Shown here: positions 1 through 26,005 of the stretch, one piece after another
Position numbering within the stretch: position 1 is the first letter of the stretch
How the letters are laid out: every line of letters starts with the position of its first letter
Assembly (NCBI GenBank): GCA_964409155.1
Contig: CAYPCF010000001.1
Span: 4,404-34,405 of the forward strand
Length of the DNA stretch: 30,002 bases
Source of the DNA: an uncultured Candidatus Saccharibacteria bacterium
GTDB taxonomy: Bacteria; Patescibacteriota; Minisyncoccia; Phycocordibacterales; UBA2100
Direction: 5' to 3'
The notes under the pieces: model-generated
The model's input: only the letters and a program-made list of their open reading frames with translations
What the model was told of the DNA's origin: nothing
Databases searched by the model: none
Position numbers and translations under genes: made by a program

Positions 1-2
1 CT

Positions 3-173
3 CAGAGTGAAGAAAAGAAAAAAGACGCACTAAAGATGATGGTGACAAGTATTGCAATTATATTTATCATGACTACAGTTTGGGGCTTGGTCGCCCTTAT
101 ACGAAACACACTTCAGCTTGACGACAACACTAATAAAAATGTTAAAATGCCGGTGGTGGTCCCACTGAGATAG
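3..173 (+). CDS. 3' part of a TrbC/VirB2-like (CPR T4SS-pilin family) membrane protein, truncated by the window edge
   Basis: Frame 3 reads QSEEKKKDALKMMVTSIAIIFIMTTVWGLVALIRNTLQLDDNTNKNVKMPVVVPLR* (TAG 171-173). The charged loop plus hydrophobic helix mirrors the downstream ORF. Not in the ORF track because it has no start in the window. Confidence 0.65.
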   Translation, partial: QSEEKKKDALKMMVTSIAIIFIMTTVWGLVALIRNTLQLDDNTNKNVKMPVVVPLR

Positions 174-187
174 GAATATTGTGATAT

Positions 188-475
188 ATGTATACAAGTA
201 ATGATTCCATAAGCGCGCTTACGACACTCTTGCAAGAATATATATTTACACCCATAGCTTACTTGCTGTATTCTGTGGCAGTCTTGGTGTTTTTTTGGGG
301 TCTCTTTGAATTCATGCTTAGCCTTCAAGATGACAAATCTGACAAAAGAGAGAAGGGCAAAAGACACATGATATACGGAATTGTGGGATTTGTGATCATG
401 CTGGGCGTAAAAGGCATTATCAACATGATAGTGGGCGTCTTCGGTATAACTGATTTACCGGTAGATATTCAGTAA
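188..475 (+). CDS. TrbC/VirB2-like pilin family membrane protein
   Basis: Two hydrophobic helices around a charged loop (FFWGLFEFM...DKREKGKRHMIYGIVGFVIMLGV), the pattern typical of CPR pilin-like proteins. Confidence 0.7.
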   Translation: MYTSNDSISALTTLLQEYIFTPIAYLLYSVAVLVFFWGLFEFMLSLQDDKSDKREKGKRHMIYGIVGFVIMLGVKGIINMIVGVFGITDLPVDIQ

Positions 476-538
476 GACAACTCTGCCTTGACATTTTACA
501 ATTCTTGGGTTTGTGTGTATTCTATGTAGCTACACATC

Positions 539-567
539 TTGATTTGTTCCACAAGAGGGTGTATAAT
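539..567 (+). promoter_or_regulatory. sigma70-type promoter for clpB
   Basis: TTGATT (539-544), 17 nt, TATAAT (562-567). Confidence 0.65.
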
Positions 568-603
568 TGTAACATTATAAATCTTAGTTAATAAAAATTG
601 CCT

Positions 604-3195
604 ATGCCAAACTTAGATAAACTAACGGAGAAATCAGCAGAAGCTCTACAGGTTGCAATAGAAACCGCTTCCAGATCAGGGCATGCGCAAGCGCTTCCTT
701 TGCACTTGCTCGCAGCACTACTTCTGCAAAAAAACACAGCGGCGAATCTCGCGCTTGAAAAAATCGCGGGAGACTTGTCCAAGATAGAAGAGGCTTTACA
801 AAAGGAGCTTTCTCTTATACCTTCTGCGCAGGGCACACAAACCGCAATGTCAAGAGAGCTGGCTGAAGTGATGCAAAATGCAGAATCTGTCGCCAAATCA
901 ATGGGAGATGAATTCGTAAGCACTGAGCATCTCTTGCTATCCATATTGGAGAACAAAAACAAAGCGCAAGATATCCTGAACTCTCATGGAGTAGACAAGA
1001 AAAGCACACTAAAGTCCATACAAGAAATACGCGGCAACAATAAAGTTGACAGTCGCAATCCTGAAAACAAATATCAAGTCCTTGAAAAATACGGGACTGA
1101 TTTTACTGAATTGGCTAAAAAAGGCGAGCTTGACCCCGTAATAGGCAGAGACGAAGAAATACGACGCGTAATGGAAGTCTTGTCGCGAAGAACAAAAAAC
1201 AACCCGGTTCTCATAGGAGATCCGGGAGTGGGTAAAACCGCCATAGTAGAAGGTTTGGCGCAACGCATAAGCAATGGAGATGTTCCAGACTCACTAAGAC
1301 ACAAGAGAATTATTTCTCTTGAAGTTGGAGCCTTGTTGGCAGGTGCTAAATTCAGAGGAGAGTTTGAAGAACGCCTAAAAGCGGTAATGAAAGAAGTGGA
1401 AGACTCTGCTGGAGAGATTATCCTGTTTATAGATGAATTGCACACCATAGTTGGCGCAGGCGGATCAGAAGGCGCAGTAGATGCCGGAAATATGCTCAAG
1501 CCATTGCTTGCAAGAGGGAAGTTACATATGATAGGCGCTACGACACTTGATGAGTATAGAAAATACATAGAAAAGGACGCGGCTTTAGAAAGACGTTTTC
1601 AAAAAGTATTTATCGGGGAGCCTTCTTTAGAAGATACCATATCCATTCTGCGTGGACTAAAAGAAAAGTATGAGCTCCATCATGGTATCAAAATAACCGA
1701 CCCTGCAATAATTGCCGCAGCAAAACTATCCACCCGATATATTACAGACAGGTTCCTACCTGACAAAGCTATAGACTTACTGGATGAGGCGGCAGCAGGA
1801 CTCAAAATAGAAGCAGAGAGCCAGCCGGCAGAATTGGACAAACTACACCGGCAAATACAACAGTTAGAAATAGAACTGGCAGCCCTTGAAAAAGAAAAAG
1901 ATGAAAAATCTAAATTAAGAAAATCAGAGGTTCTCAAGAAACTCTCATCACTTAAAGAAGAATATAACGCGAAGAAATCTCGTTGGGAGAAAGAGCGCGA
2001 CATGGTCCAAAAGATCCGAGATTTGTCAGAAGAGCTTGAAAAGTTGCAAATAGAAAAAGAACAAGCGCAAAGAGAAGGTGAGTATGAGAAAGCGGCGGAA
2101 ATTCAATATGCAAAAATCCCGGAAACTGAGAAGAAGATTAAAGAACTGCAAGCTGAACTGGACAAGATTCCTCAAAACGAAAGATTTATCAGAGAGGAAG
2201 TTACAGAAGAAGATATAGCCAAGGTTGTATCGCGTTGGACAGGTATCCCTATAACCAAACTCATGGAATCAGAAGCACAAAAACTTGCAAAACTTGAAGA
2301 CGAACTACACAAATATGTAGTAGGACAAGATGAGGCAATAGATGCTGTCGCAAGAGCAATACGACGCGCGCGCGCCGGGCTGAAAGCCGGACAAGGTCCC
2401 ATTGGCTCTTTCTTGTTCCTCGGACCTACCGGAGTAGGTAAAACAGAGTTGGCAAGAGCTTTATCTGACATACTCTTTGATAGCAAAAAAGCCATGATAC
2501 GCCTTGATATGTCAGAGTATATGGAAAAACATTCCGTATCAAAACTCATAGGCGCACCTCCGGGATATGTAGGGCATGGAGAAGGGGGGCAACTAACAGA
2601 ACCTGTAAGACGCAGGCCTTACTCTGTTATCCTTTTGGATGAGATAGAGAAAGCACACCCGGATGTGTTTAATATATTGTTGCAAGTCTTGGAAGATGGA
2701 CGGCTTACAGACTCACAAGGAAGGACGGTAAACTTCTCAAATACCATTATTATCATGACTTCAAACATGGGCTCCACACTCATTGCAGACTGGGACGGCA
2801 AAGACGAAAAGAAATTGAGGCACGATGTAATGGAGGTCGTAAATAAAAACATGCGCCCTGAACTGCTGAACCGTATAGATGAGATAGTCATATTCCACAG
2901 AATAGACAAAGAAACTCTTGAGAAGATATTGGACATACGTCTAAAGGAAACAGAGGAACTGTTAAAAGAAGAGAAAGGTATCACCTTAAAGTTAGATAAA
3001 TCAGCAAGAGAATTTCTACTTAAAGAGGGCTATGACCCCGTATTTGGAGCGCGACCCTTGAAAAGAGCTATACAACGTCACCTATTGGATGAATTAGCTA
3101 TGGAGATTATAGAAGGGAAGATAAAAGAGGGCTCAGAGGTAGATGTTTCCTACAACAAAAAAACGGGAAAGCTTAGCTTTAAGCTTGCTAAATAA
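604..3195 (+). CDS. clpB: ATP-dependent disaggregase ClpB
   Basis: Clp-N domain, two Walker A motifs ([16 protein letters not shown]), FIDELH and [14 protein letters not shown] Walker B regions, coiled-coil middle domain, [16 protein letters not shown] at 604 preferred over TTG at 598. Confidence 0.97.
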
Positions 3196-3230
3196 ATCAT
3201 TTTAGTGCGCAGGGTACTGAGTTCTTAGAT

Positions 3231-3261
3231 AAGGCGTGGCAGGCTTCGCCTGCCACGCCTT
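3231..3261. repeat. Perfect 14-bp GC-rich hairpin between clpB and queA
   Basis: AAGGCGTGGCAGGC-TTC-GCCTGCCACGCCTT, with no U-tract on either side. Confidence 0.85.
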
Positions 3262-3304
3262 GCACCTAAATACAACCCGGCAGTAATCACAAACTTATCT
3301 TGCC

Positions 3305-3335
3305 TTGTCAAAGGTGCCAATTTTAGTATTATAAT
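3305..3335 (+). promoter_or_regulatory. Putative promoter abutting the queA start (leaderless-type)
   Basis: TTGTCA (3305-3310), 16 nt, TATTAT (3327-3332; overlapping TATAAT 3330-3335), 6 nt, ATG 3339. No SD. Confidence 0.55.
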
Positions 3336-3338
3336 GCC

Positions 3339-4373
3339 ATGAAGCTATCAGATTTTGACTATTATTTGCCGGAGGAGCTGATTGCACAGAGCCCACTTGA
3401 AAAACGAGATGCGTCAAAACTCTTGGTATTAGATCGCAAGACGGGAAATATTGAACACAAGAATTTCTCAGATATAGGTCAATTTTTTACAGGCAATGAA
3501 GTCTTGGTGCGTAACAATACCCGAGTTTTACCCGCGCGCCTTTTTGGAACAAAAGATAGCGGGGCTGCGATAGAGCTGCTGTTGCTTAAAAAACTAAGCA
3601 TGCAAGACAACTCTGTGATATACGAGGCGCTTGCCAAACCTGCGCGGCGCATGAAGCTCGGATCTTGTATCACATTCAAAAAAGATGTCCTGACAGCAAA
3701 AGTTCTGGAGCGGAGAAAAGAGACTGTGTTAGTGAAATTCTATTTCTCCGGTATCTTTGAGGAAGTTCTGAGTGCGTTAGGGGAGGTGCCATTGCCTAAA
3801 TATATAAAAAGCAAACTGGAAGACGCAGACAGATACCAAACGATATACGCCAAACAAGGAGCTTCTGCAGCCGCTCCTACTGCCGGTCTGCATTTTACTG
3901 AAAATATATTTCAATCACTGCAAGACAAAGGAGTGGAGATACTTGATATCAACTTAGATGTTGGCTTGGGCACTTTTGCCCCGATTAGAACAGAAAAGCT
4001 TAGCGAACACCAAATGCACTCTGAAACATTTAATATAACAAAAACGGTAGCAGACAAGATTAATACAGCGAAAAAAACGGGGAGACCAATAGTTGCACTG
4101 GGCACAACCACCACAAGAGCATTGGAAAGTGCATGGCAAAACGGCAAACTTAACCATGGTGATTTTGAAACAGATATTTTTATAAAACCCGGATATAAGT
4201 TCAATGTCATAGATGAGCTCATCACAAATTTCCATTTGCCCAAATCCACTTTGCTTATGTTAGTCTCGGCTTTTGCGGGGAGAAAAAACATACTACGCGC
4301 CTACAATGAAGCGGTAAAACTAAGATATCGCTTCTTCTCTTTTGGAGATGCCATGTTAATAACTACAAAGTAG
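3339..4373 (+). CDS. queA: S-adenosylmethionine:tRNA ribosyltransferase-isomerase QueA
   Basis: FDYYLPEELIAQ, YQTIYA, AAAPTAGLHFT, VGLGTF, GTTTTRALES, TNFHLPKSTL, YRFFSFGDAMLI. Confidence 0.97.
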   Translation: MKLSDFDYYLPEELIAQSPLEKRDASKLLVLDRKTGNIEHKNFSDIGQFFTGNEVLVRNNTRVLPARLFGTKDSGAAIELLLLKKLSMQDNSVIYEALAKPARRMKLGSCITFKKDVLTAKVLERRKETVLVKFYFSGIFEEVLSALGEVPLPKYIKSKLEDADRYQTIYAKQGASAAAPTAGLHFTENIFQSLQDKGVEILDINLDVGLGTFAPIRTEKLSEHQMHSETFNITKTVADKINTAKKTGRPIVALGTTTTRALESAWQNGKLNHGDFETDIFIKPGYKFNVIDELITNFHLPKSTLLMLVSAFAGRKNILRAYNEAVKLRYRFFSFGDAMLITTK

Positions 4374-4399
4374 ACATTTTGCATAATACTTGATATAAT
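4371..4399 (+). promoter_or_regulatory. sigma70-type promoter for the SPFH gene
   Basis: TAGACA (4371-4376), 17 nt, TATAAT (4394-4399), with an extended TGn. Confidence 0.65.
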
Positions 4400-4433
4400 C
4401 ATAGCATTATTAAGATAATTTAAAAAACGAACT

Positions 4434-5186
4434 ATGATAACAACAATTGGTATTATATTATTTTTTGGCATTCTTTTCATGTTAAAGCAGATTAACCAAT
4501 ATCAACGCGGAGTAATGTTTACCATGGGAAGATTTACAGGAGTAAAAAATCCCGGTTGGAGACTTGTCATCCCAATATTACAGTCAATGGTCAAAGTTGA
4601 CATGCGCACCAAGGCGGTTGATGTCCCGCAACAACAAGCCATTACAAAGGACAATATATCTGTTGGTGTAAACGCAGTGATTTATTACAAAGTTAATGAC
4701 GCGTCAAAGGCCATTTTAAATGTTGAGGATTTCTACTACGCCATCAGCCAACTTGCGCAAACCACCATGCGAAATGTAGTGGGGGAGGTGGAGCTTGATG
4801 AGCTACTTGCCGGAAGAGAAAAGATCAGTGAGAGGATCAGAGAAATCGTTGACAAGGCCTCAGATGAATGGGGTCTCAAGGTAGAGAATGTGGAGCTCAA
4901 AGATGTAGTCTTACCTGAAGACATGGAAAGAACAATTGCAAAACAAGCGGAAGCCGAAAGAGAAAAACGCGCCGTAATCATCAAAGCGGAAGGTGAAAAG
5001 ATAGCCGCAAAAAATATGGCAGAAGCTGCCGAAATGCTCAACGCCGCGCCGGGGGCGCTACATTTGCGCACTTTGCAATCAATAAATGATTTATCATCAG
5101 ACCAGAGCAACACCGTCATATTCGCAGTCCCAATAGAAGTGCTAAGAGCAATAGAAAGCGTTAAAGATTCACTTTCTAAAAAGTAA
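4434..5186 (+). CDS. SPFH/band 7 (stomatin/slipin) family membrane protein
   Basis: N-terminal TM helix, YQRGVMFTMGR, ITKDNISVGVNAVIY, AQTTMRNVVG, WGLKVENVELKD, AKQAEAEREKRA, ALHLRTLQ. Confidence 0.93.
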   Translation: MITTIGIILFFGILFMLKQINQYQRGVMFTMGRFTGVKNPGWRLVIPILQSMVKVDMRTKAVDVPQQQAITKDNISVGVNAVIYYKVNDASKAILNVEDFYYAISQLAQTTMRNVVGEVELDELLAGREKISERIREIVDKASDEWGLKVENVELKDVVLPEDMERTIAKQAEAEREKRAVIIKAEGEKIAAKNMAEAAEMLNAAPGALHLRTLQSINDLSSDQSNTVIFAVPIEVLRAIESVKDSLSKK

Positions 5187-5190
5187 AACC

Positions 5191-5688
5191 ATGCAACAAA
5201 CACAAAATGTCTTAAGAATAGTCAAGCCCGAGCCTGACTCTGATGATTGGTGGAAGCTTAAGGACCGTATTTGGACTTTTCTGGATCGGCACGACAAGAT
5301 GATTCTTGGATATACAAACAATCTCGGTGAGCCGGTTCAAAGCCTGATGCTTTATACGGTAAATGATGATATGGATTTATTCATTGGGACACTCAAACGC
5401 TTCCCAAAATATGAAGCCTTGGTGCAAAATCCACCATTGTCAGTTGTCGTGCAAGGAGAAGGTGAACGGGAAAAACTTCAAGCTCTTACAATAAAAGCTG
5501 TAGTGCTTGAGGAAATATCCGAACAGGACAGCTTAGCCGAGCTAAAAGATTGGTTTGTAAGCAAAAATTCATGTAAATACTTCATCAAAGACCAAGAAGA
5601 TTTCGTAATGTTTAAAATAAAACCATTAAGCCTGCGCCTGATAGAAGGGGTAAATGATAGCTTGGTAAGATATGATATAAATTTATAG
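5191..5688 (+). CDS. Pyridoxamine 5'-phosphate oxidase-like (FMN split-barrel) protein
   Basis: LFIGTLKRFPKYEALVQNPPLSVVV resembles the family T...K..N...NP.VS motif; C-terminal FKIKP strand; 4 nt after the SPFH stop. Confidence 0.6.
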   Translation: MQQTQNVLRIVKPEPDSDDWWKLKDRIWTFLDRHDKMILGYTNNLGEPVQSLMLYTVNDDMDLFIGTLKRFPKYEALVQNPPLSVVVQGEGEREKLQALTIKAVVLEEISEQDSLAELKDWFVSKNSCKYFIKDQEDFVMFKIKPLSLRLIEGVNDSLVRYDINL

Positions 5689-5698
5689 ACTTATCCAT

Positions 5699-8600
5699 AT
5701 GGAGAACGGACTTGCGGAAAAACCATCCTTTAAATTGGGAGGATTGCGCGAAATTGTGAAAAAAGTGTTAGGAGTCCCGCGTATCTTAGGCTTGAGTGTT
5801 TTACTTGCTATTCCCGGGGTAAATCCTGCTTCAGCAGACAGTGAGGTGGAGCTCAAATCAACCCAAGTGCAACCTGAAGAACCCAGCAAACTTAACAATC
5901 TTAAATATGATTATGCTATCAGTAAATTTACCGCTTTGCCCACCATTGAGCGCATGGCGAAAAATCCATTGCAAAGAAAATTGCTGTATTACATACCAAA
6001 AATAGCATTAAATGATAATCCGTATAATCTGTCCACTTCCCTTGAAGTTGGCGCTGATAATCCACATATTTTACTAGGGATCAATATAAAAACCATAGAT
6101 GAGGAACGTGCGCTTGAAGATTATATAATATCAAATATTGAGAGTCCTAACATAAAGAAGTTGATTAACTTTATCTATATGTCTCAAGAGATTGATGCTG
6201 TTCAGAGCAATTTTATTCATTTAGATGATCAAGGGCAAGAAGAAACTGACCCTCTTACTTTATTAGAGAAAACTATAATAAAAAGTGAAGATAAAATAAA
6301 AACTTTTCTTCATGAGAACTTAGATGAAAATGATTTTAAATTACCTCGATCAATACTTTATGCATATCTGGAAAGGCACCCGGGGCAAATTAAAGAAAAT
6401 CGTGAAAAAATTATAAAGTTTATCGAGAATGATAACAGTGGTGCCGCGCTTCATTTTTTGTTCTATATTATGAAGCAGCCGGATCTTAGTATCAAACTCA
6501 GCTTGTTCTCCTCACTTAATGAATTCTCTCGCTTATTAATGCAAAAAGCGAAAGACAACAAAGAATTTTTCTGGTTATACATGTCTACCGTGAGAACAAA
6601 TTTCTCAATGGATGAAAAAGATAGGGATAATATAGAAAGACTTATAACAAATAGAGATTTTTATAATTCATTGGGAAATGATTTTGATTGGTCGGATTAT
6701 ATAAAAGGTAATAACCGCGAGCAGAAAGGGGTTAATATAATGTTCGCTTTTGGATATTCAAATATTATGAGCGAAGGTTCTGCAATTCCGGTTGGCACAA
6801 CTTTAGATAGGCAAATTAACAAATTGGTCGGGGACAATTGGATATTTATGAAAAATGACCCCGGTTTTAAGATGTTACTCAACAATCCAAAATTTCCATC
6901 GAAATTACCCATGGAAACACAATTCAAATTAGCCAAAATAAGTGAACAAAAAATCTTACAAGGCACGAAAGAGCATTTGTATCATAAAATTTACAGTTCT
7001 TTGCTTTCTCACTCTAATTTTATTAGTACTTATTTTTTAAATGAAATTACTCCCAAAAAACAAGTTGACTTGTTGAGAAAAATAGATTCCACACAATTGT
7101 GGCATATAATGTTTAGACTAGACATGCGCTCATTACCCATCGTCAAATACTCTCTGGGTAAGAATCAATTATTAGAACACTTAAAACCTTCAGATTTTTA
7201 CAGCGGTTTGAAATCAGAAGATGGCGCGGCAAGATTTCTTATGCGCTTTATTCTAAGAGCTACAGAGGTACAACTCCCTAATGAGAACCATTTATATAAT
7301 ATGGTGCGTAATTTCCTTAAAGAGGAGGAAGGGGAAGATGCTAAAATGGTTGACAAAGCTTTGATACATCTAAAAACGCAGCTATATTTTCATAATTCAA
7401 AAGGTGGGTGGGAAAACAGAGAAAAAATAATAAAATTGATATCTCATGAACATCGTCTTAGACTACTTAAATTATCCGCCACAGATAGACCTCTAACACA
7501 TGCAAGCTATATTGAAAGAAATTACAACAATCTTCCGCAAGAAGATATAGATGCAGCCATAAATGGTCTTAAAACATTTGTATTGAATGCATTATCAGGT
7601 AACGCCGGAGACTACCAATACAATAAGGTGATGCGTGTTATAAACCATCTACACCCATCCAAACTAAGTAAATATCGTGGAGAGATTATCAGCTTATTGA
7701 GCCCAAAACAACGCTACGCTTTGAGTGTATACGGCGCGGAGGAATTATTTACATCCACTTCAACTTATGTAAGTTATTTATTCCCGGCGATAATGAAAGA
7801 TATACAAAAATATGGATTACAAAGATATATACAATTAGTTGATAAAAATAATCAGCTACTCGGGAGGTTTCTTACCGTTGCCGCACGCTACGGTAAACTA
7901 AGTCTGTTGTTTAAGGATTTCTCATTTAATAATATGAGTGATATTGTCAAAGACATGTTAAAAAACATAAATGCGGATACTGCACTTGCAACGGTGGAAA
8001 TCTTTAAATTGCTTGCAGATAACCAAAGCGATACAGAAAAGCTACTTTCCGATCTGTATGATTTAGACGCACAATTACAAAACAATGGTAACATGGTAGG
8101 GGAGAGGCTTCTGGAGAGTGTTGTTTCTCTAATTTATAACTCTTCAATCAAAAAGAATGCGTCCACCTATAACAAAAAACTTAGAGCATGGCTTCAGAAG
8201 TGTTCAGAACGAGAACATATTTTTATACCTAACACGATATCTTTTGACAAATTATATTTGCAAGAAGGGGACAAAATGGTACATAGACAATTGTGGTTAT
8301 TTTTTGAAGGAGGTGACAAAGACGGGATAGCATCAAGATGGAGTGCCGAGACTCAACTTCGAAAAGCCGGTTTCAAATTTAAGACTTTAAAAGATGATAC
8401 TCGTTTGGCCACCAAATCAACAGGGAATAAAGTAGTTGAGATATATCTGAGTAATATTATTGATGTTCATAATATAGAACATGCATCAGATTCTGTTTCG
8501 CCAACTGTCATGAATTTAATACATGGCTCAGATAAAAAGTTCCAGGTTCTAAGTTATAGAGGGCATAGTACATACATACCAAATCTTTCAGACTTTTTAA

Positions 8601-8962
8601 GTAAGTCATTAAATAAAGCACATCCATTATCTATAATAAACCTTGGGAGTTGTGGTGGGGTATCAAGTATTCGCCGAGTTGATAAATCCATATCTCAAGA
8701 TGTATCCGCATGGATAGGTACGCAAGCTACCGGAACAGCGGAGATAAATGATTTGATTTTATCTAATATGGCCACATTTATATCTCATATAGAACCGGGA
8801 CAAGAATTAAATTTTAAAATTCTAAAACAAAAAATAGATGAGCATGTCCCTCGAGGACTTAGAAATAAATGGAGAGGGTATAAATTCCCACATGAAAACA
8901 TACCGGCTATATTAACAATGCATTTCAACAGAATTAAAACCAACAGGAGTAACAAACCTTAA
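5699..8962 (+). CDS. Large hypothetical protein (1087 aa) with probable signal peptide and C-terminal putative cysteine-peptidase-like domain
   Basis: Uninterrupted AT-rich ORF; hydrophobic segment ILGLSVLLAIPGVNPASA; motifs LSYRGHS (H956) and INLGSCGG (C985). Confidence 0.8.
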   Translation: MENGLAEKPSFKLGGLREIVKKVLGVPRILGLSVLLAIPGVNPASADSEVELKSTQVQPEEPSKLNNLKYDYAISKFTALPTIERMAKNPLQRKLLYYIPKIALNDNPYNLSTSLEVGADNPHILLGINIKTIDEERALEDYIISNIESPNIKKLINFIYMSQEIDAVQSNFIHLDDQGQEETDPLTLLEKTIIKSEDKIKTFLHENLDENDFKLPRSILYAYLERHPGQIKENREKIIKFIENDNSGAALHFLFYIMKQPDLSIKLSLFSSLNEFSRLLMQKAKDNKEFFWLYMSTVRTNFSMDEKDRDNIERLITNRDFYNSLGNDFDWSDYIKGNNREQKGVNIMFAFGYSNIMSEGSAIPVGTTLDRQINKLVGDNWIFMKNDPGFKMLLNNPKFPSKLPMETQFKLAKISEQKILQGTKEHLYHKIYSSLLSHSNFISTYFLNEITPKKQVDLLRKIDSTQLWHIMFRLDMRSLPIVKYSLGKNQLLEHLKPSDFYSGLKSEDGAARFLMRFILRATEVQLPNENHLYNMVRNFLKEEEGEDAKMVDKALIHLKTQLYFHNSKGGWENREKIIKLISHEHRLRLLKLSATDRPLTHASYIERNYNNLPQEDIDAAINGLKTFVLNALSGNAGDYQYNKVMRVINHLHPSKLSKYRGEIISLLSPKQRYALSVYGAEELFTSTSTYVSYLFPAIMKDIQKYGLQRYIQLVDKNNQLLGRFLTVAARYGKLSLLFKDFSFNNMSDIVKDMLKNINADTALATVEIFKLLADNQSDTEKLLSDLYDLDAQLQNNGNMVGERLLESVVSLIYNSSIKKNASTYNKKLRAWLQKCSEREHIFIPNTISFDKLYLQEGDKMVHRQLWLFFEGGDKDGIASRWSAETQLRKAGFKFKTLKDDTRLATKSTGNKVVEIYLSNIIDVHNIEHASDSVSPTVMNLIHGSDKKFQVLSYRGHSTYIPNLSDFLSKSLNKAHPLSIINLGSCGGVSSIRRVDKSISQDVSAWIGTQATGTAEINDLILSNMATFISHIEPGQELNFKILKQKIDEHVPRGLRNKWRGYKFPHENIPAILTMHFNRIKTNRSNKP

Positions 8963-9059
8963 ATTAGAGATGCCGATATCACATAACTTATTTATAGACT
9001 TCCTAAATTGGGCAGGCAGGATAAGGAAAGGATAGGATATTTATATATAAAATATTATA

Positions 9060-9087
9060 GAGTCGCACAATATACCTTTTGCGACTC
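9060..9087. other. dif-like tyrosine-recombinase site (11-6-11 inverted arms)
   Basis: GAGTCGCACAA-TATACC-TTTTGCGACTC; arms are 10/11 inverted complements, extended by TATA on both sides; lies at the + to - gene-orientation switch. Confidence 0.5.
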
Positions 9088-9147
9088 TATATACTATATA
9101 TCGTATACAAATAATACTTGTTGGCATAACAACTACCCATATCTGCC

Positions 9148-9975
9148 TCAGCGTAATTTTATTAGCGCTTTAAATTCTTCACTTAACATCATTGAAGCCC
9201 ACACGGTTAAGATTACCTTGTTTTTACCTGTCCGCTCATGTATCTGATCAATACTGCAACCGTTAATACGCATGTATGCATGTTCTAAAACTGTCATATA
9301 TGCATCTTTTCCATTACCCGAAACTCTTTTGGGGTCAAACATAAAACCTGTTATAACACGAGTAGCTGTATATGGACAATATTTAAAATCCTTATTAAAT
9401 TGACTGGAGATATATCTAGATAAGCCCATAACTCTTATGTCTTTCTTTAAAGCTAATTCAAGTATCACAGCTACCTTAGATGCGTCTCTTATGTTCTTCC
9501 AAAAAGCGCCCAAGCGTCTCAGCTTGTGAATTTTTGCTGCAGGCCCAGGGTCATGCGCTTCTAATTTATCCACAAACTGAGTAAGCATTGATCGTATTGG
9601 CCGGTAATCTTTGGTATCAATACTCAGATGGTCCGTAATCGCACTGAAACCCAAGCGTTCAATTGTCATAGCTAAAATTACTCTTTTATCCGTGTGTTGT
9701 TTAATAGAATAGCTGCGTGGTATAAAACAACATTCCCGCTCAGTTAATTCTAAAGGCAAATCAATACCATATCTTTGCAAGTAAAAATCACGTATTTGCG
9801 CATCTGTCATATTTTTAAAAGCAATCCATCTTCCTTGTTGAGTATCAAAATATGCGCGTTCCGGATTGGCTACAGGAATAATACTTCTATCTTCTAAATC
9901 TGCAAAAAATGCAGGTTTTACTCTCGGGTCAATGGCTTTTAGAAAAGCTCTTCTTATCGCTTCCATATCATCCAT
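9148..9975 (-). CDS. Hypothetical protein with possible helix-turn-helix segments
   Basis: 275-aa ORF from ATG 9975 (track starts at TTG 9981). C-terminal MRINGCSIDQIHERTGKNKVILTVW is HTH-like. No family recognised. Confidence 0.65.
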   Translation of the reverse strand: MDDMEAIRRAFLKAIDPRVKPAFFADLEDRSIIPVANPERAYFDTQQGRWIAFKNMTDAQIRDFYLQRYGIDLPLELTERECCFIPRSYSIKQHTDKRVILAMTIERLGFSAITDHLSIDTKDYRPIRSMLTQFVDKLEAHDPGPAAKIHKLRRLGAFWKNIRDASKVAVILELALKKDIRVMGLSRYISSQFNKDFKYCPYTATRVITGFMFDPKRVSGNGKDAYMTVLEHAYMRINGCSIDQIHERTGKNKVILTVWASMMLSEEFKALIKLR

Positions 9976-10051
9976 ACGCAATATATAACAGAGAATGCCG
10001 CAAAAAACAAGAAGGCATTAACGACTGCCCCACTTTTTATATAACACAAAT

Positions 10052-10071
10052 TTTAGCGTCGCACAATATAT
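10052..10071 (+). repeat. Direct copy of the dif-like left arm plus spacer
   Basis: TTTAGCGTCGCACAATATAT; 17/19 identical to 9056-9074 and 19/20 identical to 11618-11637. Confidence 0.8.
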
Positions 10072-10096
10072 CAGTAACTGCAAAAACAAGATGGTC

Positions 10097-11404: not shown

Positions 11405-12763
11405 CTATGCGCGCAAGTTAGCTAAAGCATCAATCGCTTTGTGTAGCCTCATGCAGGCTTCATCTTGACCAAGAGCGGCAAGTAAGACAAACGGGTTCGG
11501 TGAACGCTTCTGCCCTGATAACGCATACCTAAGTGGCCAGAGCACATCACCTTTTCCTTCTGTCTCAGCATACGGCATGATCATCTCTTCTACCCCATCT
11601 ACTGTAAGCGTCGTTAATTTAGAGTCGCACAATATATTTATAAGTTTTTGTAAATGTTTTATCGCGGTTTCTTTGTCGCTTTTTTTCCAGATAAGCTCAG
11701 ACGGATCGTAATCTAATTCATCCGCCGACTTCAAAATCCAGTCAAACTCCCCTTGCTTTTCCAACTCTGAAATATCCGCATATACATAAATTCTTTCTTT
11801 TAAGTCACATGCAAGCGCTTCTTTTACCTTATCATCAGATAATCGCTCTTTAAGAGATGGCCCGGCAAATCCTAACAAAGCAGCGTAGAATTCGTCACTT
11901 TCCAAGTTTCGCAGATATTCTCTGTTAATCCATCTCAATTTTTCTTCGTTAAAAACAGCGCCGGCTTTTTGGATGCCGGCCAAATCAAAACTCTCTACCA
12001 GCTCATCTATGGACCATAATTCTTTCTCATCATTGTCTTTACTGCGCCATCCAAGCATCGCCAAGAAATTAACCATCGCCTCCGGCAGATACCCCATCTT
12101 CTTATATTCAAGCACAGAAACCGCGCCATGTCTTTTGGACAACTTACTTTTGTCAGGAGCGAGAATAAATGGTATATGAGCATATTGAGGGCTCTCAAAC
12201 CCGAGGGCTTGTTGTAGTAAAATTTGTCTTGGTGTATTGGAAATACCATCTTCCCCGCGAAGTATATGGGTTATCCCCATATCATAATCATCCACAACAA
12301 CAGCCAGATGATATAACGGGTCGTCTACAGAGCGGGCAATAACAAAATCACCAAGGTCACTTGTGTCCACCTTGATTTCCCCTCTTATCAAATCATTGAA
12401 TGATATTTCTTTGTTCGGGTTCTTGAAGCGTATCACTCTTGCGGTTTTGTCTTTGTTCTCTTCGGCCTCGTATGCAAGACCGCTATCAATCAATTCTAAA
12501 AGGTGTTTTTTATATATATCACTGCGCTCACTCTGACGCTGCAAGTCCCCTTCCCAGTTAATGCCCAACCACTTCAAACCGGCTAAAATATCTTCTTCGT
12601 ATTCCTTTTTACTGCGTTCTTTGTCAGTGTCTTCCATGCGCAGGACCATTTTCCCATTGTAGTGTTTTGCGAAAAGATAATTAAAAAGCGCAGTTCGCGC
12701 AGACCCTACGTGCAAAAGACCGGTTGGGGACGGTGGGAATCTTGTTATGACAGTATTACTCAT
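11405..12763 (-). CDS. gltX: Glutamate--tRNA ligase
   Basis: RFPPSPTGLLHVG (HIGH), LRMEDTDKERS, VVDDYDMGITHILRGED, KLSKR (KMSKS), VLWPLRYALSG. ATG at 12763 preferred. Confidence 0.97.
   Translation of the reverse strand: MSNTVITRFPPSPTGLLHVGSARTALFNYLFAKHYNGKMVLRMEDTDKERSKKEYEEDILAGLKWLGINWEGDLQRQSERSDIYKKHLLELIDSGLAYEAEENKDKTARVIRFKNPNKEISFNDLIRGEIKVDTSDLGDFVIARSVDDPLYHLAVVVDDYDMGITHILRGEDGISNTPRQILLQQALGFESPQYAHIPFILAPDKSKLSKRHGAVSVLEYKKMGYLPEAMVNFLAMLGWRSKDNDEKELWSIDELVESFDLAGIQKAGAVFNEEKLRWINREYLRNLESDEFYAALLGFAGPSLKERLSDDKVKEALACDLKERIYVYADISELEKQGEFDWILKSADELDYDPSELIWKKSDKETAIKHLQKLINILCDSKLTTLTVDGVEEMIMPYAETEGKGDVLWPLRYALSGQKRSPNPFVLLAALGQDEACMRLHKAIDALANLRA
11618..11637 (+). repeat. 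Third direct copy of the dif-like arm, inside gltX
   Basis: TTTAGAGTCGCACAATATAT; 11620-11636 is a 17-nt exact match to 9058-9074. Confidence 0.75.
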
Positions 12764-18424: not shown

Positions 18425-19033
18425 TTATTTTTCATTTAAAAAACTCAGTCTGTGCTCTTCGCTTACACCGAGCTTGCGCAAAGCGTCAAAATGCGCTTTT
18501 GTCCCATAGCCTTTGTGTTTTTCAAAATAATATCCCGGATATTTTTTTGCAATCTCTATCATATATCTGTCCCGTAAAACTTTTGCCACCACAGATGCCA
18601 AAGCTACCTCTATGAATTTCTCATCTCCTTTAGTAACGCTTTTCCAGTTGTATATATCCGGAGCTTTCAATGCTCCGTCTAAAATTACAGACTCGCTTGG
18701 AGCAGCTCCTATCTGTAACAATAAATCTGCAACGGCTTTTTGTAAAGCTTCAGAGATACCATGCTTGTCTATATACTTTGCGCTTAGAAAAATATGCTCG
18801 TATTTTATGTGTTGCGCTTGTAAAATATACTCAAAAATCGCATCACGCCTTTTCTCGCTAAGTTTTTTAGAGTCTTTAAATGGGCTCGCCAACATAAACG
18901 ACAACGGCTCTGAATCAAAATCTTCCCTTAAGGCTTCCATATCTTCCACTTTCACAACAGCCACAGACAATGGCCCCGCTATGGGCCCACGCCCCGCCTC
19001 ATCTATCCCATATATCAAGTTTTCTTTAAGCAT
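18425..19033 (-). CDS. rnhB: Ribonuclease HII
   Basis: GIDEAGRGPIAGP, DSKKLSEKRR, ILDG, KGD, ASVVAKVLRD, KHKGYGTKAH, HRLSF. Start ATG 19033 overlaps the SET gene stop (ATGCTTAA). Confidence 0.95.
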   Translation of the reverse strand: MLKENLIYGIDEAGRGPIAGPLSVAVVKVEDMEALREDFDSEPLSFMLASPFKDSKKLSEKRRDAIFEYILQAQHIKYEHIFLSAKYIDKHGISEALQKAVADLLLQIGAAPSESVILDGALKAPDIYNWKSVTKGDEKFIEVALASVVAKVLRDRYMIEIAKKYPGYYFEKHKGYGTKAHFDALRKLGVSEEHRLSFLNEK

Positions 19034-23011: not shown

Positions 23012-26005
23012 CTATCTCATCATGTCGCGCAAGGCACAATACTCACATTTACCTTGCTTGTGTTTTTCACAGCGACTATCCCAAAAATCAAAATTGTATA
23101 TGGACTGCACTGCAGTTTGCATCTCAGAGCGCAGCTCTTTCAAATCGTCATCGCTAATATCAAAAAATTCTCTTGAAAAATCCCCTGATTCTTTCGGCTG
23201 TATGAAGTCTATCACTCCTTGTCTCATCTTATACTTCCCTTCCGTATCAAGTAGCAACTTATAAAACACGAGTTGGCGGAAGTAGTCTTTATTGCCGTCT
23301 TTGTTCTTGCCTAACAATTTGTTGCGGGTTCTCGGCTTTCCGGTCTTGTAGTCATATACCAATACCTCCGAGTCATCCACAAACTCTAATTTGTCCAATT
23401 TTCCCGTTATCCGCAATTGAGGCAAAAATTCTAAGCCTGTTTCAAACAGAACATCAATCGGATATTCGTTCAAGGTCTTCTGAGGCTTTGCAAAACTCTC
23501 CTTATAGTGATTCATCCAAGCGAAAAGATATTCTTTGGCAAGCTTTAGTATGTCTTCGGCTCTTTGCTCGCCAACGGCACGCTTTTGCAGATAATCACGC
23601 ATGATTACTGTAAGCTCTTTTTTTGTTTTTATTTGACCCTGCTTTAGCCCCTCATGCAAAACAAAAAGAGCGTGGTGCAAGACATTTCCCAGCAACAAAT
23701 ACTTATCCTGCATTTTGGGTATGCGTATCAAGTTGCTGTAAAAAAAATTCCATGGACAATCTAAGAAATTATTTAGCGCTGTAACCGATAGGCCTTGTTC
23801 CATAAAAAGCGCGCGTAGATATTCCATATCTGCTACTGATTTTGCGCTTAAAGGCGCGGATTTCAAAAGCTCCGCTTTTGAAATCCGCGCCTCCTCTTCA
23901 CTCATATCCAAGTTACAAAGAGCGCTACCTGTCAACTCTGTAACAAAAACCGAAGGCAGTCTCTCTTTGCCCGCCTCTGAGAATTTGCCGTAAGACATAT
24001 GCACCGCCAGCTTAGCTCTAGTCAGAGCGACAAAAAACAATCTGCGCTCGTCATCATTTCCTTCGTCAAATTTGGCTTTCTTGGTGGGCAAGATAAACTT
24101 ATCTCTTGATGCTCTGTTGCCCCATTTTTTATCATAGACCCGCAACAAAAACACATGCTCAAACTCTAAGCCTTTCGCTTTATGCGCCGTCATAAGCTTG
24201 ACCGTATTCGGGCGCAGGGTCGGCTCTTTGCTGATGGACAGCTTATGTTTGCGTAAAATACTCAAATGCTCCAAAAAATCCTCTAACTTGTAGTCAAGCT
24301 GTCCGGCAGACATTGCGCTGGCATCTTTAAAAAGAACATGCAACTTGTCCAACAAATCCAAACTGTTCTTTCTGTTTAGCGCAAAAGTTAGAAAACCGGA
24401 GTTATTGAGTATCTCGTTTATGAACTCAGGTAACGGCTCATTTTTTGCAAGTTTACCAAAGCGCGCCATAAAATTTCCAAAAGAACGCATGCTCTTTACA
24501 TCCTTAACTCCCGCGCTTTGCAGCTCCTTGTCAGACAAGATGATATCATACAGACTCTTTTTTGAACGACGATAATGCTTAAGCGTCTTATACACATCCA
24601 ACTCATCAAGCTCCAAAAAATCAAGGTGCATCACACGCGCCAAGTATTCATCATGACCAAAATTATTTACAGCTTCAAGCAAAAGCAGGAATTTATTTAT
24701 ATCCTTATCTTTGAGTGTATCTGCGCCCGATGCAATATGAAAAGGAACCGACTCTTTCTCAAGAGCTTTTACAAAGAGCTCAGCATCGGCATTTGTGCGA
24801 TATATCAAGGCGATTTCTTTTGCCGGCACACCCTCATCCAGAAGTCGTCTTACTTGCTTGGCGACATGCGCAGCTTCCATTTCATCATCAGAATATACCG
24901 CCAAAGAGAGCTCCGCTTTTTCAATGCCGGCTTTGGAGTGCAGTTTTGCGCGTTTTAGATGGTCTGTTGCATGAGACATTAAAGCATGAGCCGCGTCCAA
25001 TATCTCTTGCCCTGAACGATATGAGTCTTCAAGTTCTATTACCTTTGCATCTTTAAATTTATTTTTGAAATACATAAAGTTTTCAAGAGACGCTCCTTGA
25101 AAGCGGTAAATGGCTTGCTTTTCATCCCCCACAATAAAAAGATTCGGTGACTCATGAAAGTCCGTCAACAACTCCAAAAGCATGTTTTGCGCATCATTTG
25201 CATCTTGATGCTCATCTGCCAAAACATAAAGGAAGTTTTCTTGCACACGCATTTTAAAATCCTCGTCTTCACGCATCTGCCTTACAAGCTCTAATATCAT
25301 GTCCTCAAAATCGTACAGTTTCTCTACACGAAGCAAGTCTTCGTATTTCTCATATATATCTACCAACTCTAAACCCCGTAAAAGTTTCTTTTCTATCGCA
25401 GAAGCCTCTTTTTTGAGTTTGCCGGTTCTTTTGTTGTAGGATGTCTCATCCGCCCTTAGTCTGTCCAACTCTTTGACGGTAAATTCTTTTAGAGTCTGCG
25501 CCGAGATGGCGTCTCGCTTAAGCTCAGATATTGCACCCATGATAGATGTTAAGTGCATATGCTTATCATAAAACGGCTTTAGCTCGCTATAGTCCCCCTC
25601 GTCTATGATGCGCGCCAAAAGCAGTATTTTCTCCACATCAGTCATAGGTTTTGACAATACCAAACGCTCAAAACTCTCCGGGTCATTTTGTATCACAGAG
25701 TTGGCAAAACCATGAAATGTATGAACATTCACCTTGTAACCCTCCGGGCCAATCATTTTTACCAAGCGCTCTTTCATGTTGGCGGCAGCGCTTTCGGTAA
25801 AAGTCAAAGCCAAAATACCGTCGGCCGGCGTATCGGTTTGTCTTAAAATATTTGCTATGCGAAGTGTAAGTATTTGTGTTTTTCCGGTTCCTGGTCCTGC
25901 CACTACCATCACGGGGCCGTCTATGCTATCTACCGCCTCTTTTTGCCTGGCATTAAGCATTTTATAGTTCTTTGTAAATGCCGGTGTTACTTTTACCTTA
26001 GACAT
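23012..26005 (-). CDS. UvrD/PcrA-family SF1 helicase fused to a C-terminal PD-(D/E)XK nuclease (AdnA/B-, AddA-like)
   Basis: AGPGTGKT, ADEHQD, VGDEKQAIYRFQG, YRS, MTAHKAKGLEF, DERRLFFVALTRA; nuclease GKLDK, YDYKTG, QLVFY; four Cys (DCPW...C...CEYC). ATG at 26005 preferred. Confidence 0.9.
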   Translation of the reverse strand: MSKVKVTPAFTKNYKMLNARQKEAVDSIDGPVMVVAGPGTGKTQILTLRIANILRQTDTPADGILALTFTESAAANMKERLVKMIGPEGYKVNVHTFHGFANSVIQNDPESFERLVLSKPMTDVEKILLLARIIDEGDYSELKPFYDKHMHLTSIMGAISELKRDAISAQTLKEFTVKELDRLRADETSYNKRTGKLKKEASAIEKKLLRGLELVDIYEKYEDLLRVEKLYDFEDMILELVRQMREDEDFKMRVQENFLYVLADEHQDANDAQNMLLELLTDFHESPNLFIVGDEKQAIYRFQGASLENFMYFKNKFKDAKVIELEDSYRSGQEILDAAHALMSHATDHLKRAKLHSKAGIEKAELSLAVYSDDEMEAAHVAKQVRRLLDEGVPAKEIALIYRTNADAELFVKALEKESVPFHIASGADTLKDKDINKFLLLLEAVNNFGHDEYLARVMHLDFLELDELDVYKTLKHYRRSKKSLYDIILSDKELQSAGVKDVKSMRSFGNFMARFGKLAKNEPLPEFINEILNNSGFLTFALNRKNSLDLLDKLHVLFKDASAMSAGQLDYKLEDFLEHLSILRKHKLSISKEPTLRPNTVKLMTAHKAKGLEFEHVFLLRVYDKKWGNRASRDKFILPTKKAKFDEGNDDERRLFFVALTRAKLAVHMSYGKFSEAGKERLPSVFVTELTGSALCNLDMSEEEARISKAELLKSAPLSAKSVADMEYLRALFMEQGLSVTALNNFLDCPWNFFYSNLIRIPKMQDKYLLLGNVLHHALFVLHEGLKQGQIKTKKELTVIMRDYLQKRAVGEQRAEDILKLAKEYLFAWMNHYKESFAKPQKTLNEYPIDVLFETGLEFLPQLRITGKLDKLEFVDDSEVLVYDYKTGKPRTRNKLLGKNKDGNKDYFRQLVFYKLLLDTEGKYKMRQGVIDFIQPKESGDFSREFFDISDDDLKELRSEMQTAVQSIYNFDFWDSRCEKHKQGKCEYCALRDMMR

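Follow-up and report, generated by a model that had tools for sequence, protein, structure and literature searches.

The 28-bp sequence at positions 9060-9087 (+ strand) of the window, i.e., the whole 30,002-nucleotide stretch analysed here from an uncultured Candidatus Saccharibacteria bacterium, is very probably the chromosomal dif site of this CPR (Patescibacteria) bacterium, as judged from sequence comparison. The original prediction, in which the site resolves chromosome dimers with the help of a single Xer recombinase, is supported by the conservation of the site, its single copy, its position at the replication terminus and the presence of one Xer in the relatives, all of which were observed directly, as were the architecture of the site and the fact that relatives with one Xer also encode FtsK carrying a gamma domain. 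By the criteria of earlier in-silico predictions of dif (PMC3025954, PMC2958812), the site qualifies as one.

Architecture and conservation of the site

The site is composed of a left arm (9060-9070, + strand; GAGTCGCACAA), a spacer (9071-9076, + strand; TATACC) and a right arm (9077-9087, + strand; TTTTGCGACTC), forming an 11-6-11 unit whose arms are complementary at 10 of 11 positions. Geometry, spacer and inverted arms were exactly as first described, and the reported 7/11 match of the arm to the XerC arm of E. coli was correct (E. coli sequence from PMC3025954). The palindrome even extends outward into a 15-6-15 inverted repeat (9056..9091, no strand assigned; TATA...TATA at its ends), complementary at 14 of 15 positions; this extension is species-specific, since its outer four bases are not kept in relatives. 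In first-order Markov surrogates of this AT-rich DNA, 11-6-11 repeats with at most one mismatch arose by chance at a mean of 0.53 per 30 kb, and 15-6-15 repeats as in the window at 0.003 per 30 kb, the latter being rare and significant. Because an 11-6-11 repeat by itself is not significant in this AT-rich DNA, the case was built on comparative evidence. One full site was present in the whole assembly of this genome, the single occurrence expected of dif.

With up to three mismatches allowed, 15 of 61 close relatives each had one copy of the 28-mer, and these matches showed that the conserved part consists of the inner 24 bases, spacer included. At the same threshold, the 24-mer matched 208 of 301 genomes in the order of this bacterium (more than 100 families) and 152 of 401 genomes across the phylum (93 and 249 genomes, respectively, were without a match at up to three mismatches), and the 24-mer pattern read backwards as a control gave 0 matches. 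These tallies include unpublished genomes: G283 in the site and recombinase counts of the order, and G490 in the phylum count; none of the single claims depends on either. Copy number was exactly one in nearly every matching genome of the order and the phylum, and one in the complete genome G228. The motif, which the original prediction expected to recur in relatives, is thus kept as sequence and in single copy, in the order and beyond it.

Among the matches listed for the exact degenerate pattern, almost all were Patescibacteria records (Saccharibacteria, Paceibacterota, Nomura-, Kaiser-, Campbell-, Shapiro- and Berkelbacteria). Some records titled Gammaproteobacteria, Pseudomonadales or Bdellovibrionales also carried the exact site once (L131, L137, L148, L155, L156, L158 and L173); the genomes of L131, L137, L148, L156 and L173 measure 0.6-1.4 Mb, and such titles are probably wrong labels for CPR genomes.

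In an alignment of 38 loci, a 28-bp block was informative (R-Y-GTCGCACAA / TATATC / TTTTGCGAC-A-Y), with conservation falling to background level outside its borders. The left arm was almost invariant and more variation was seen in the right arm; when each arm was read on its own strand, the two always differed at position 9 (C vs A), and a second difference was present in ~45% of the sites. In other CPR classes the spacer was TGTATC and the right arm TTATGCGAC or TTGTGCGAC, through which the core of these classes comes nearer to that of E. coli dif: the consensus of the order was identical to the dif of E. coli and of B. subtilis at 17 of 28 positions (sequences from PMC3025954), and the variant of the other CPR classes to E. 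coli dif at 19 of 28. [quoted passage not shown]

The site and the replication terminus

As the original prediction implied, the site and the skew-defined terminus coincided in complete relatives, and a local flip was present in the window. Among eight long-contig relatives, the GC-skew maximum lay within ~160 bp of the site in four, at 1.7 kb in one and at 8 kb in one, and the skew was flat in two. In the three closed genomes, the distance from dnaA to the site was 44-50% of the chromosome: i) in G228 (617,472 bp in one contig), with the site at 305,726, dnaA lay at the cumulative-skew minimum and the maximum at 304 kb, the site being 49.5% of the chromosome from dnaA; ii) in G083 (742,714 bp), with the site at 614,658, the skew flipped at the site (157 bp) and dnaA was found at the opposite flip, 45% away; iii) in G121 (981,549 bp), with the site at 484,909, the skew flipped within 8 kb and dnaA was 44% away. 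In 80-kb windows centred on the site, the local cumulative-skew maximum was at most 30 bp from the site in G144, G233 and G311, and the GC-skew flip was weak in G227 and absent in G205.

Location at the terminus or skew shift was thus established in relatives and, in the present genome, whose assembly is in 49 contigs and 83% complete, as a local flip. The cumulative GC skew of the window peaked at 8.5 kb. GC skew at third codon positions (GC3) on the + strand, which separates replication bias from coding-strand bias, was +0.040 left of the site and, right of it, -0.213 for the - genes and -0.185 for the three + genes. Being strongly negative for the genes of both strands right of the site, the GC3 flip is independent of gene orientation. 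GC3 skew was far weaker on the left replichore (window 1-9000, +0.04) than on the right (9100-30002, about -0.2). The caveat that clpB gives no clear sign of leading-strand bias holds, its third-position GC skew being only +0.042; that spot check was inconclusive because GC3 skew is weak on the left replichore.

A second and partly independent mark of the terminus, beside GC skew, was the polarity of AGGGAAG, which is more strand-polar than any other 7-mer of G228 (leading:lagging, 92:11). In that genome the site was bracketed by the last forward copy (305,193) and the first reverse copy (307,769). In seven other genomes, forward and reverse copies stood at 33:3 in the 40 kb to the left and at 1:49 in the 40 kb to the right (counted in the 80-kb windows L085-L088, L098-L101 and L286-L305, in addition to the whole of G228). 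The word was polar also where GC skew was uninformative, with 4:2 left and 0:12 right in G205, and 10:0 left and 0:7 right in G227. It flipped at the site in seven of the eight long-contig relatives, copies in G311 being too few to tell. In the window, copies pointing toward dif were located at 1515..1521 and 3114..3120 (both + strand, left replichore) and at 18922..18928 and 23234..23240 (both - strand, right replichore), and the sole wrong-way copy at 6036..6042 (- strand, left of dif). AGGGAAG behaves as FtsK-orienting words do and, by this analogy, is a candidate for such a word in CPR.

Recombinase, arm half-sites and alternative readings

A strong hit to a Xer-type recombinase was found in 291 of 301 genomes of the order (mostly exactly one) and in four of the five genomes of the genus. 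The relatives thus encode one Xer, not two, as had been proposed; the present, 83%-complete assembly yielded no xer gene by PF00589 or by tblastn with the proteins of 35 relatives. The closed genomes G228 and G083 carried exactly one Xer, whose gene was distant from the site and 25-30 kb away from dnaA; the distance from xer to dif in this order was 250-400 kb. The Xer proteins of relatives scored 225-254 bits against the XerC and XerD equivalogs TIGR02224 and TIGR02225 (below their cut-offs of 335 and 330) and 232-240 bits against the XerA NCBIfam NF040815 (above its cut-off of 220; relatives' proteins only), and their best PDB match was 4a8e. Aligned with XerD (1a0p) and XerA (4a8e), they showed the complete catalytic set R-K-H-R-H-Y, and they were without the RQ..QQ tail of XerD, which has been tied to the interaction with FtsK (PMC5357621). 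As the recombinase has no such tail, we only infer control of the reaction by FtsK. A gamma domain was present in the FtsK of five of five complete relatives, and FtsK itself is encoded in this genome. In the congener G004 (L283:7863-9431, contig C62), xer was the immediate neighbour of the M23-gltX-murG cluster and of a pair of diverged copies of the arm, so that the place of xer varies within one genus, being close to the dif region or at another location.

The 11-bp arm followed by the first spacer bases recurred at or just before the start of xer in 27 of 35 genomes (among loci L110-L113 and L240-L268; for example, L113:1112-1146 in G228, L112:~2376 in G083 and L111:~2406 in G311), and in 0 of 35 in a downstream control. 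This half-site overlapped the ATG in some genomes, was inverted in five, and was out of frame or non-coding in G228, G083 and G311; given such positions, the constraint acts on the DNA and not on the N-terminus of Xer. G228 had two half-sites at xer, facing outward, and the arm 13-mer occurred three times in its 617 kb, i.e., in dif, in the xer promoter and in one other place. In the congener G003, a half-site was found on contig C20 just upstream of xer. The half-site at the xer start suggests that Xer is the binder and that xer is autoregulated by repression of its own gene.

Three copies of the arm 13-mer, all pointing the same way, were found in the window (9062, 10058 and 11624). The second half-site (10052..10072, + strand) consists of the left arm and the spacer TATATC without a right arm, and is flanked by the stop codon of an M23 peptidase gene on one side and by a terminator-like hairpin (10031-10012) on the other. 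The third (11618..11640, + strand), again without a right arm, consists of the left arm and the spacer-like TATATT, and lies inside gltX at the codons for Ile-Leu-Cys-Asp on the - strand. In the gltX of G003 these codons carried the same 12 bases although the stretch around them had diverged; the residues were not kept in G004 and G005. G003 also had a half-site 0.5 kb from its dif, comparable to the second half-site of the window. Downstream of dif-proximal half-sites in other genomes there was no consistent ORF. That simple integration of elements at dif gave rise to the three direct copies of the arm was considered and rejected by reasoning: in the arm-to-arm direction, the full site comes first here and integration predicts that it comes last.

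Half-sites at a gene start and near dif would also be found if a non-Xer protein, such as a terminus-organising protein, a replication-termination protein or a transcription factor, bound the site; in favour of this we also counted the inner part CACAATATAT, which we take to resemble half of an NrdR box. However, the 11-6-11 geometry and the identity to bacterial dif at 17-19 of 28 positions fit Xer, and the gene that carries the arm half-site at its start in those 27 of 35 genomes is xer itself. Moreover, the site is present here in one copy, whereas known terminus organisers and fork traps have many, and no conserved gene follows it downstream. Binding by a non-Xer protein is thus very improbable, and the dif reading is preferred.

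The site lies in a 185-bp gap between two convergent genes, 5699..8962 (+ strand) and 9148..9981 (- strand). Counting ORFs of at least 100 aa, five of five to its left were on the + strand and 16 of 19 to its right on the - strand, so that the gene convergence of the original prediction stood and its counts (seven left on +, 16 of 20 right on -) were close though not identical. The left neighbour (1087 aa) is the last gene of the + replichore, and the right neighbour (277 aa), between dif and the second half-site, is an orphan with no homologue in the congeners G003-G005; Pfam and PHROGs searches with these two proteins and with a 165-aa neighbour protein gave no match. In relatives the site was intergenic in essentially all of 107 loci, its flanking genes were convergent at 46, divergent at 5 and tandem at 34 of 85 classified loci, and no neighbour gene was conserved around it. 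The 1087-aa gene, which is left of dif on the + strand in this genome, is right of dif on the - strand in G003 (L281:2463-3983); this opposite-side, inverted placement is a rearrangement across the terminus between the two genomes.

With convergent genes on both sides and no other terminator-like site in the gap, the palindrome might instead be a simple bidirectional intrinsic terminator that acts as an RNA hairpin, and the extended stem of this genome would fold as RNA at -18.9 kcal/mol (+ strand) and -22.1 kcal/mol (- strand). The conservation pattern does not fit this alternative, which had been raised along with the prediction. Relatives keep the sequence and not the structure, the 6-nt 'loop' being nearly invariant: among 148 unique sites, stem pair 4-19 was an uncompensated C.A mismatch in 67 and stem pair 6-17 was C.T in all 148, and a T-run followed only 5-6% of the sites on either strand. 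Furthermore, the flanking genes are not conserved and include the tandem neighbours at 34 of 85 loci, and terminators are not expected to occur just once per genome, at the terminus. A consensus terminator scan did not flag the site, which lacked the properties of an intrinsic terminator, and the best Rfam 15 hits over 8600-9500 reached 17-20 bits vs gathering scores of 37-100. A primary role as terminator is thus very improbable, although in this species the extended stem could incidentally act as a terminator too, in a secondary role. All sequencing runs in which the locus was found were DNA runs.

Several observations concern mobile DNA and strain variation at the site. Contigs (not reads) of related strains from other hydrothermal-vent samples (runs X2-X4) stopped matching at 9055, 9062 and 9093, i.e., at the edges of the palindrome; their synteny also broke at 8820 and 11334, and their foreign flanks were absent from this genome (G000) and its congeners. 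In G235 (L284:10248-13783, equal to C5:75248-78783), two dif-like sites in direct repeat stood 3.5 kb apart, with small ORFs including a HicA toxin gene, and the module between them looks like one inserted at dif. In G121 (L285:5742-9836, equal to C1:483742-487836), a second, weaker tyrosine recombinase gene ended ~280 bp before dif, PadR and PspC-domain genes were on the other side, and the GC-skew maximum was 8 kb further; this dif region may be an inserted island.

The loss of synteny right at the palindrome edges, the direct repeats around the toxin gene in G235, the extra integrase 330 bp from the site in G121 and the orphan gene between dif and the second half-site of the window would all suit a site that serves mainly for the attachment of integrating mobile elements and not for dimer resolution by the host, but elements that use Xer target dif as a host site, which makes attachment a complement to the dif reading and not its replacement, and only a function for the host would account for single-copy conservation at the terminus throughout the phylum in genomes that have no element close to the site, so that we give this alternative hardly any weight.

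On the dif reading, a further role of the arm can be entertained, tentatively: it may serve also as an operator, through the half-site at the xer start, for self-repression by Xer and as a cassette boundary. In this genus, the half-sites of arm plus spacer near dif (10058 and 11624 here, with counterparts in G003) would then mark the places at which Xer moves strain-specific DNA in and out at the terminus. If so, the 277-aa orphan gene and the foreign flanks in the other vent samples would be examples of swapped DNA.

Proposed mechanism and relation to known Xer systems

In the proposed mechanism, two monomers of one Xer-family tyrosine recombinase would bind the two nearly identical 11-bp arms, which differ at arm position 9 (C vs A); the arm half-site at the xer start also points to such binding. 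Strand exchange across the asymmetric 6-bp spacer would then convert chromosome dimers to monomers at the terminus. Polar words such as AGGGAAG probably guide FtsK, which here has a gamma domain, on its way to the site, where it probably brings the two dif copies together. Control by FtsK is presumed, as is the order in which the strands are exchanged.

Several features are shared with XerCD/dif of E. coli and B. subtilis (PMC3025954, PMC5357621): i) a 28-bp site with 11-bp arms and a 6-bp spacer, identical at 17 of 28 positions; ii) a single copy in each chromosome, located at the GC-skew shift, with FtsK-gamma and polar words that converge on the site; iii) an xer gene near the origin and far from dif, as reported for xerD. 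Unlike in XerCD, there is one recombinase and not a pair, it scores below both equivalog cut-offs and is without the RQ..QQ tail, and the arms are nearly identical.

On the other hand, the system resembles archaeal XerA/dif (PMC2958812; 4a8e, 5hxy) in its single ~300-aa recombinase and its 28-bp near-symmetric dif, which is often unlinked to the gene, and the best PDB match (4a8e) and the score above the NCBIfam XerA cut-off agree with this. It differs in that the organism here is a bacterium with FtsK-gamma, whereas archaea have no FtsK and XerA works without it (PMC2958812); moreover the site is ~180 degrees from dnaA here, vs 122-144 degrees in archaeal XerA/dif (PMC2958812), and the arm sequence is different.

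With XerS/difSL and XerH/difH it shares the use of one recombinase on two slightly different arms and the presence of FtsK (PMC1914069, PMC2965235, PMC5241119, PMC5357621), and by comparison with XerS and XerH the difference between the arms could determine which is cleaved first. XerS and XerH, however, are ~355 aa long and their genes adjoin the site, and difSL is 31 bp long with an 11-bp spacer (PMC1914069, PMC2965235, PMC5241119, PMC5357621), whereas the present system has an Xer of ~300 aa and an 11-6-11 site, with 250-400 kb separating xer from dif in this order.

In the protein classification of Smyshlyaev et al. 2021 (PMC8138268), Xer-related tyrosine recombinases from candidate phyla form a 'Cand' subgroup, to which the Xer of the relatives probably belongs; we saw no recombination site described there. 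In line with the original remark that no characterised CPR dif was known, our literature search found no published description of one, no text joining Patescibacteria and 'chromosome dimer' and none containing the sequence words of the site, and among its top-ranked results none linked CPR or Saccharibacteria to Xer/dif.

A large part of bacterial diversity belongs to the CPR/Patescibacteria, which are almost all uncultured and represented mainly by fragmented assemblies. A word of 24-28 bases that occurs once per genome would provide a terminus marker for these bacteria, of use in orienting contigs and in checking closed genomes; it would also anchor coverage-based estimates of growth rate and reveal elements that integrate at dif. 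Some Saccharibacteria can be grown with their hosts, and since the exact site is present in Saccharibacteria records, binding and recombination are testable. These bacteria, in which a single XerA-like recombinase is combined with a canonical 28-bp dif and with FtsK-gamma, would possess a system that stands between archaeal XerA and bacterial XerCD.
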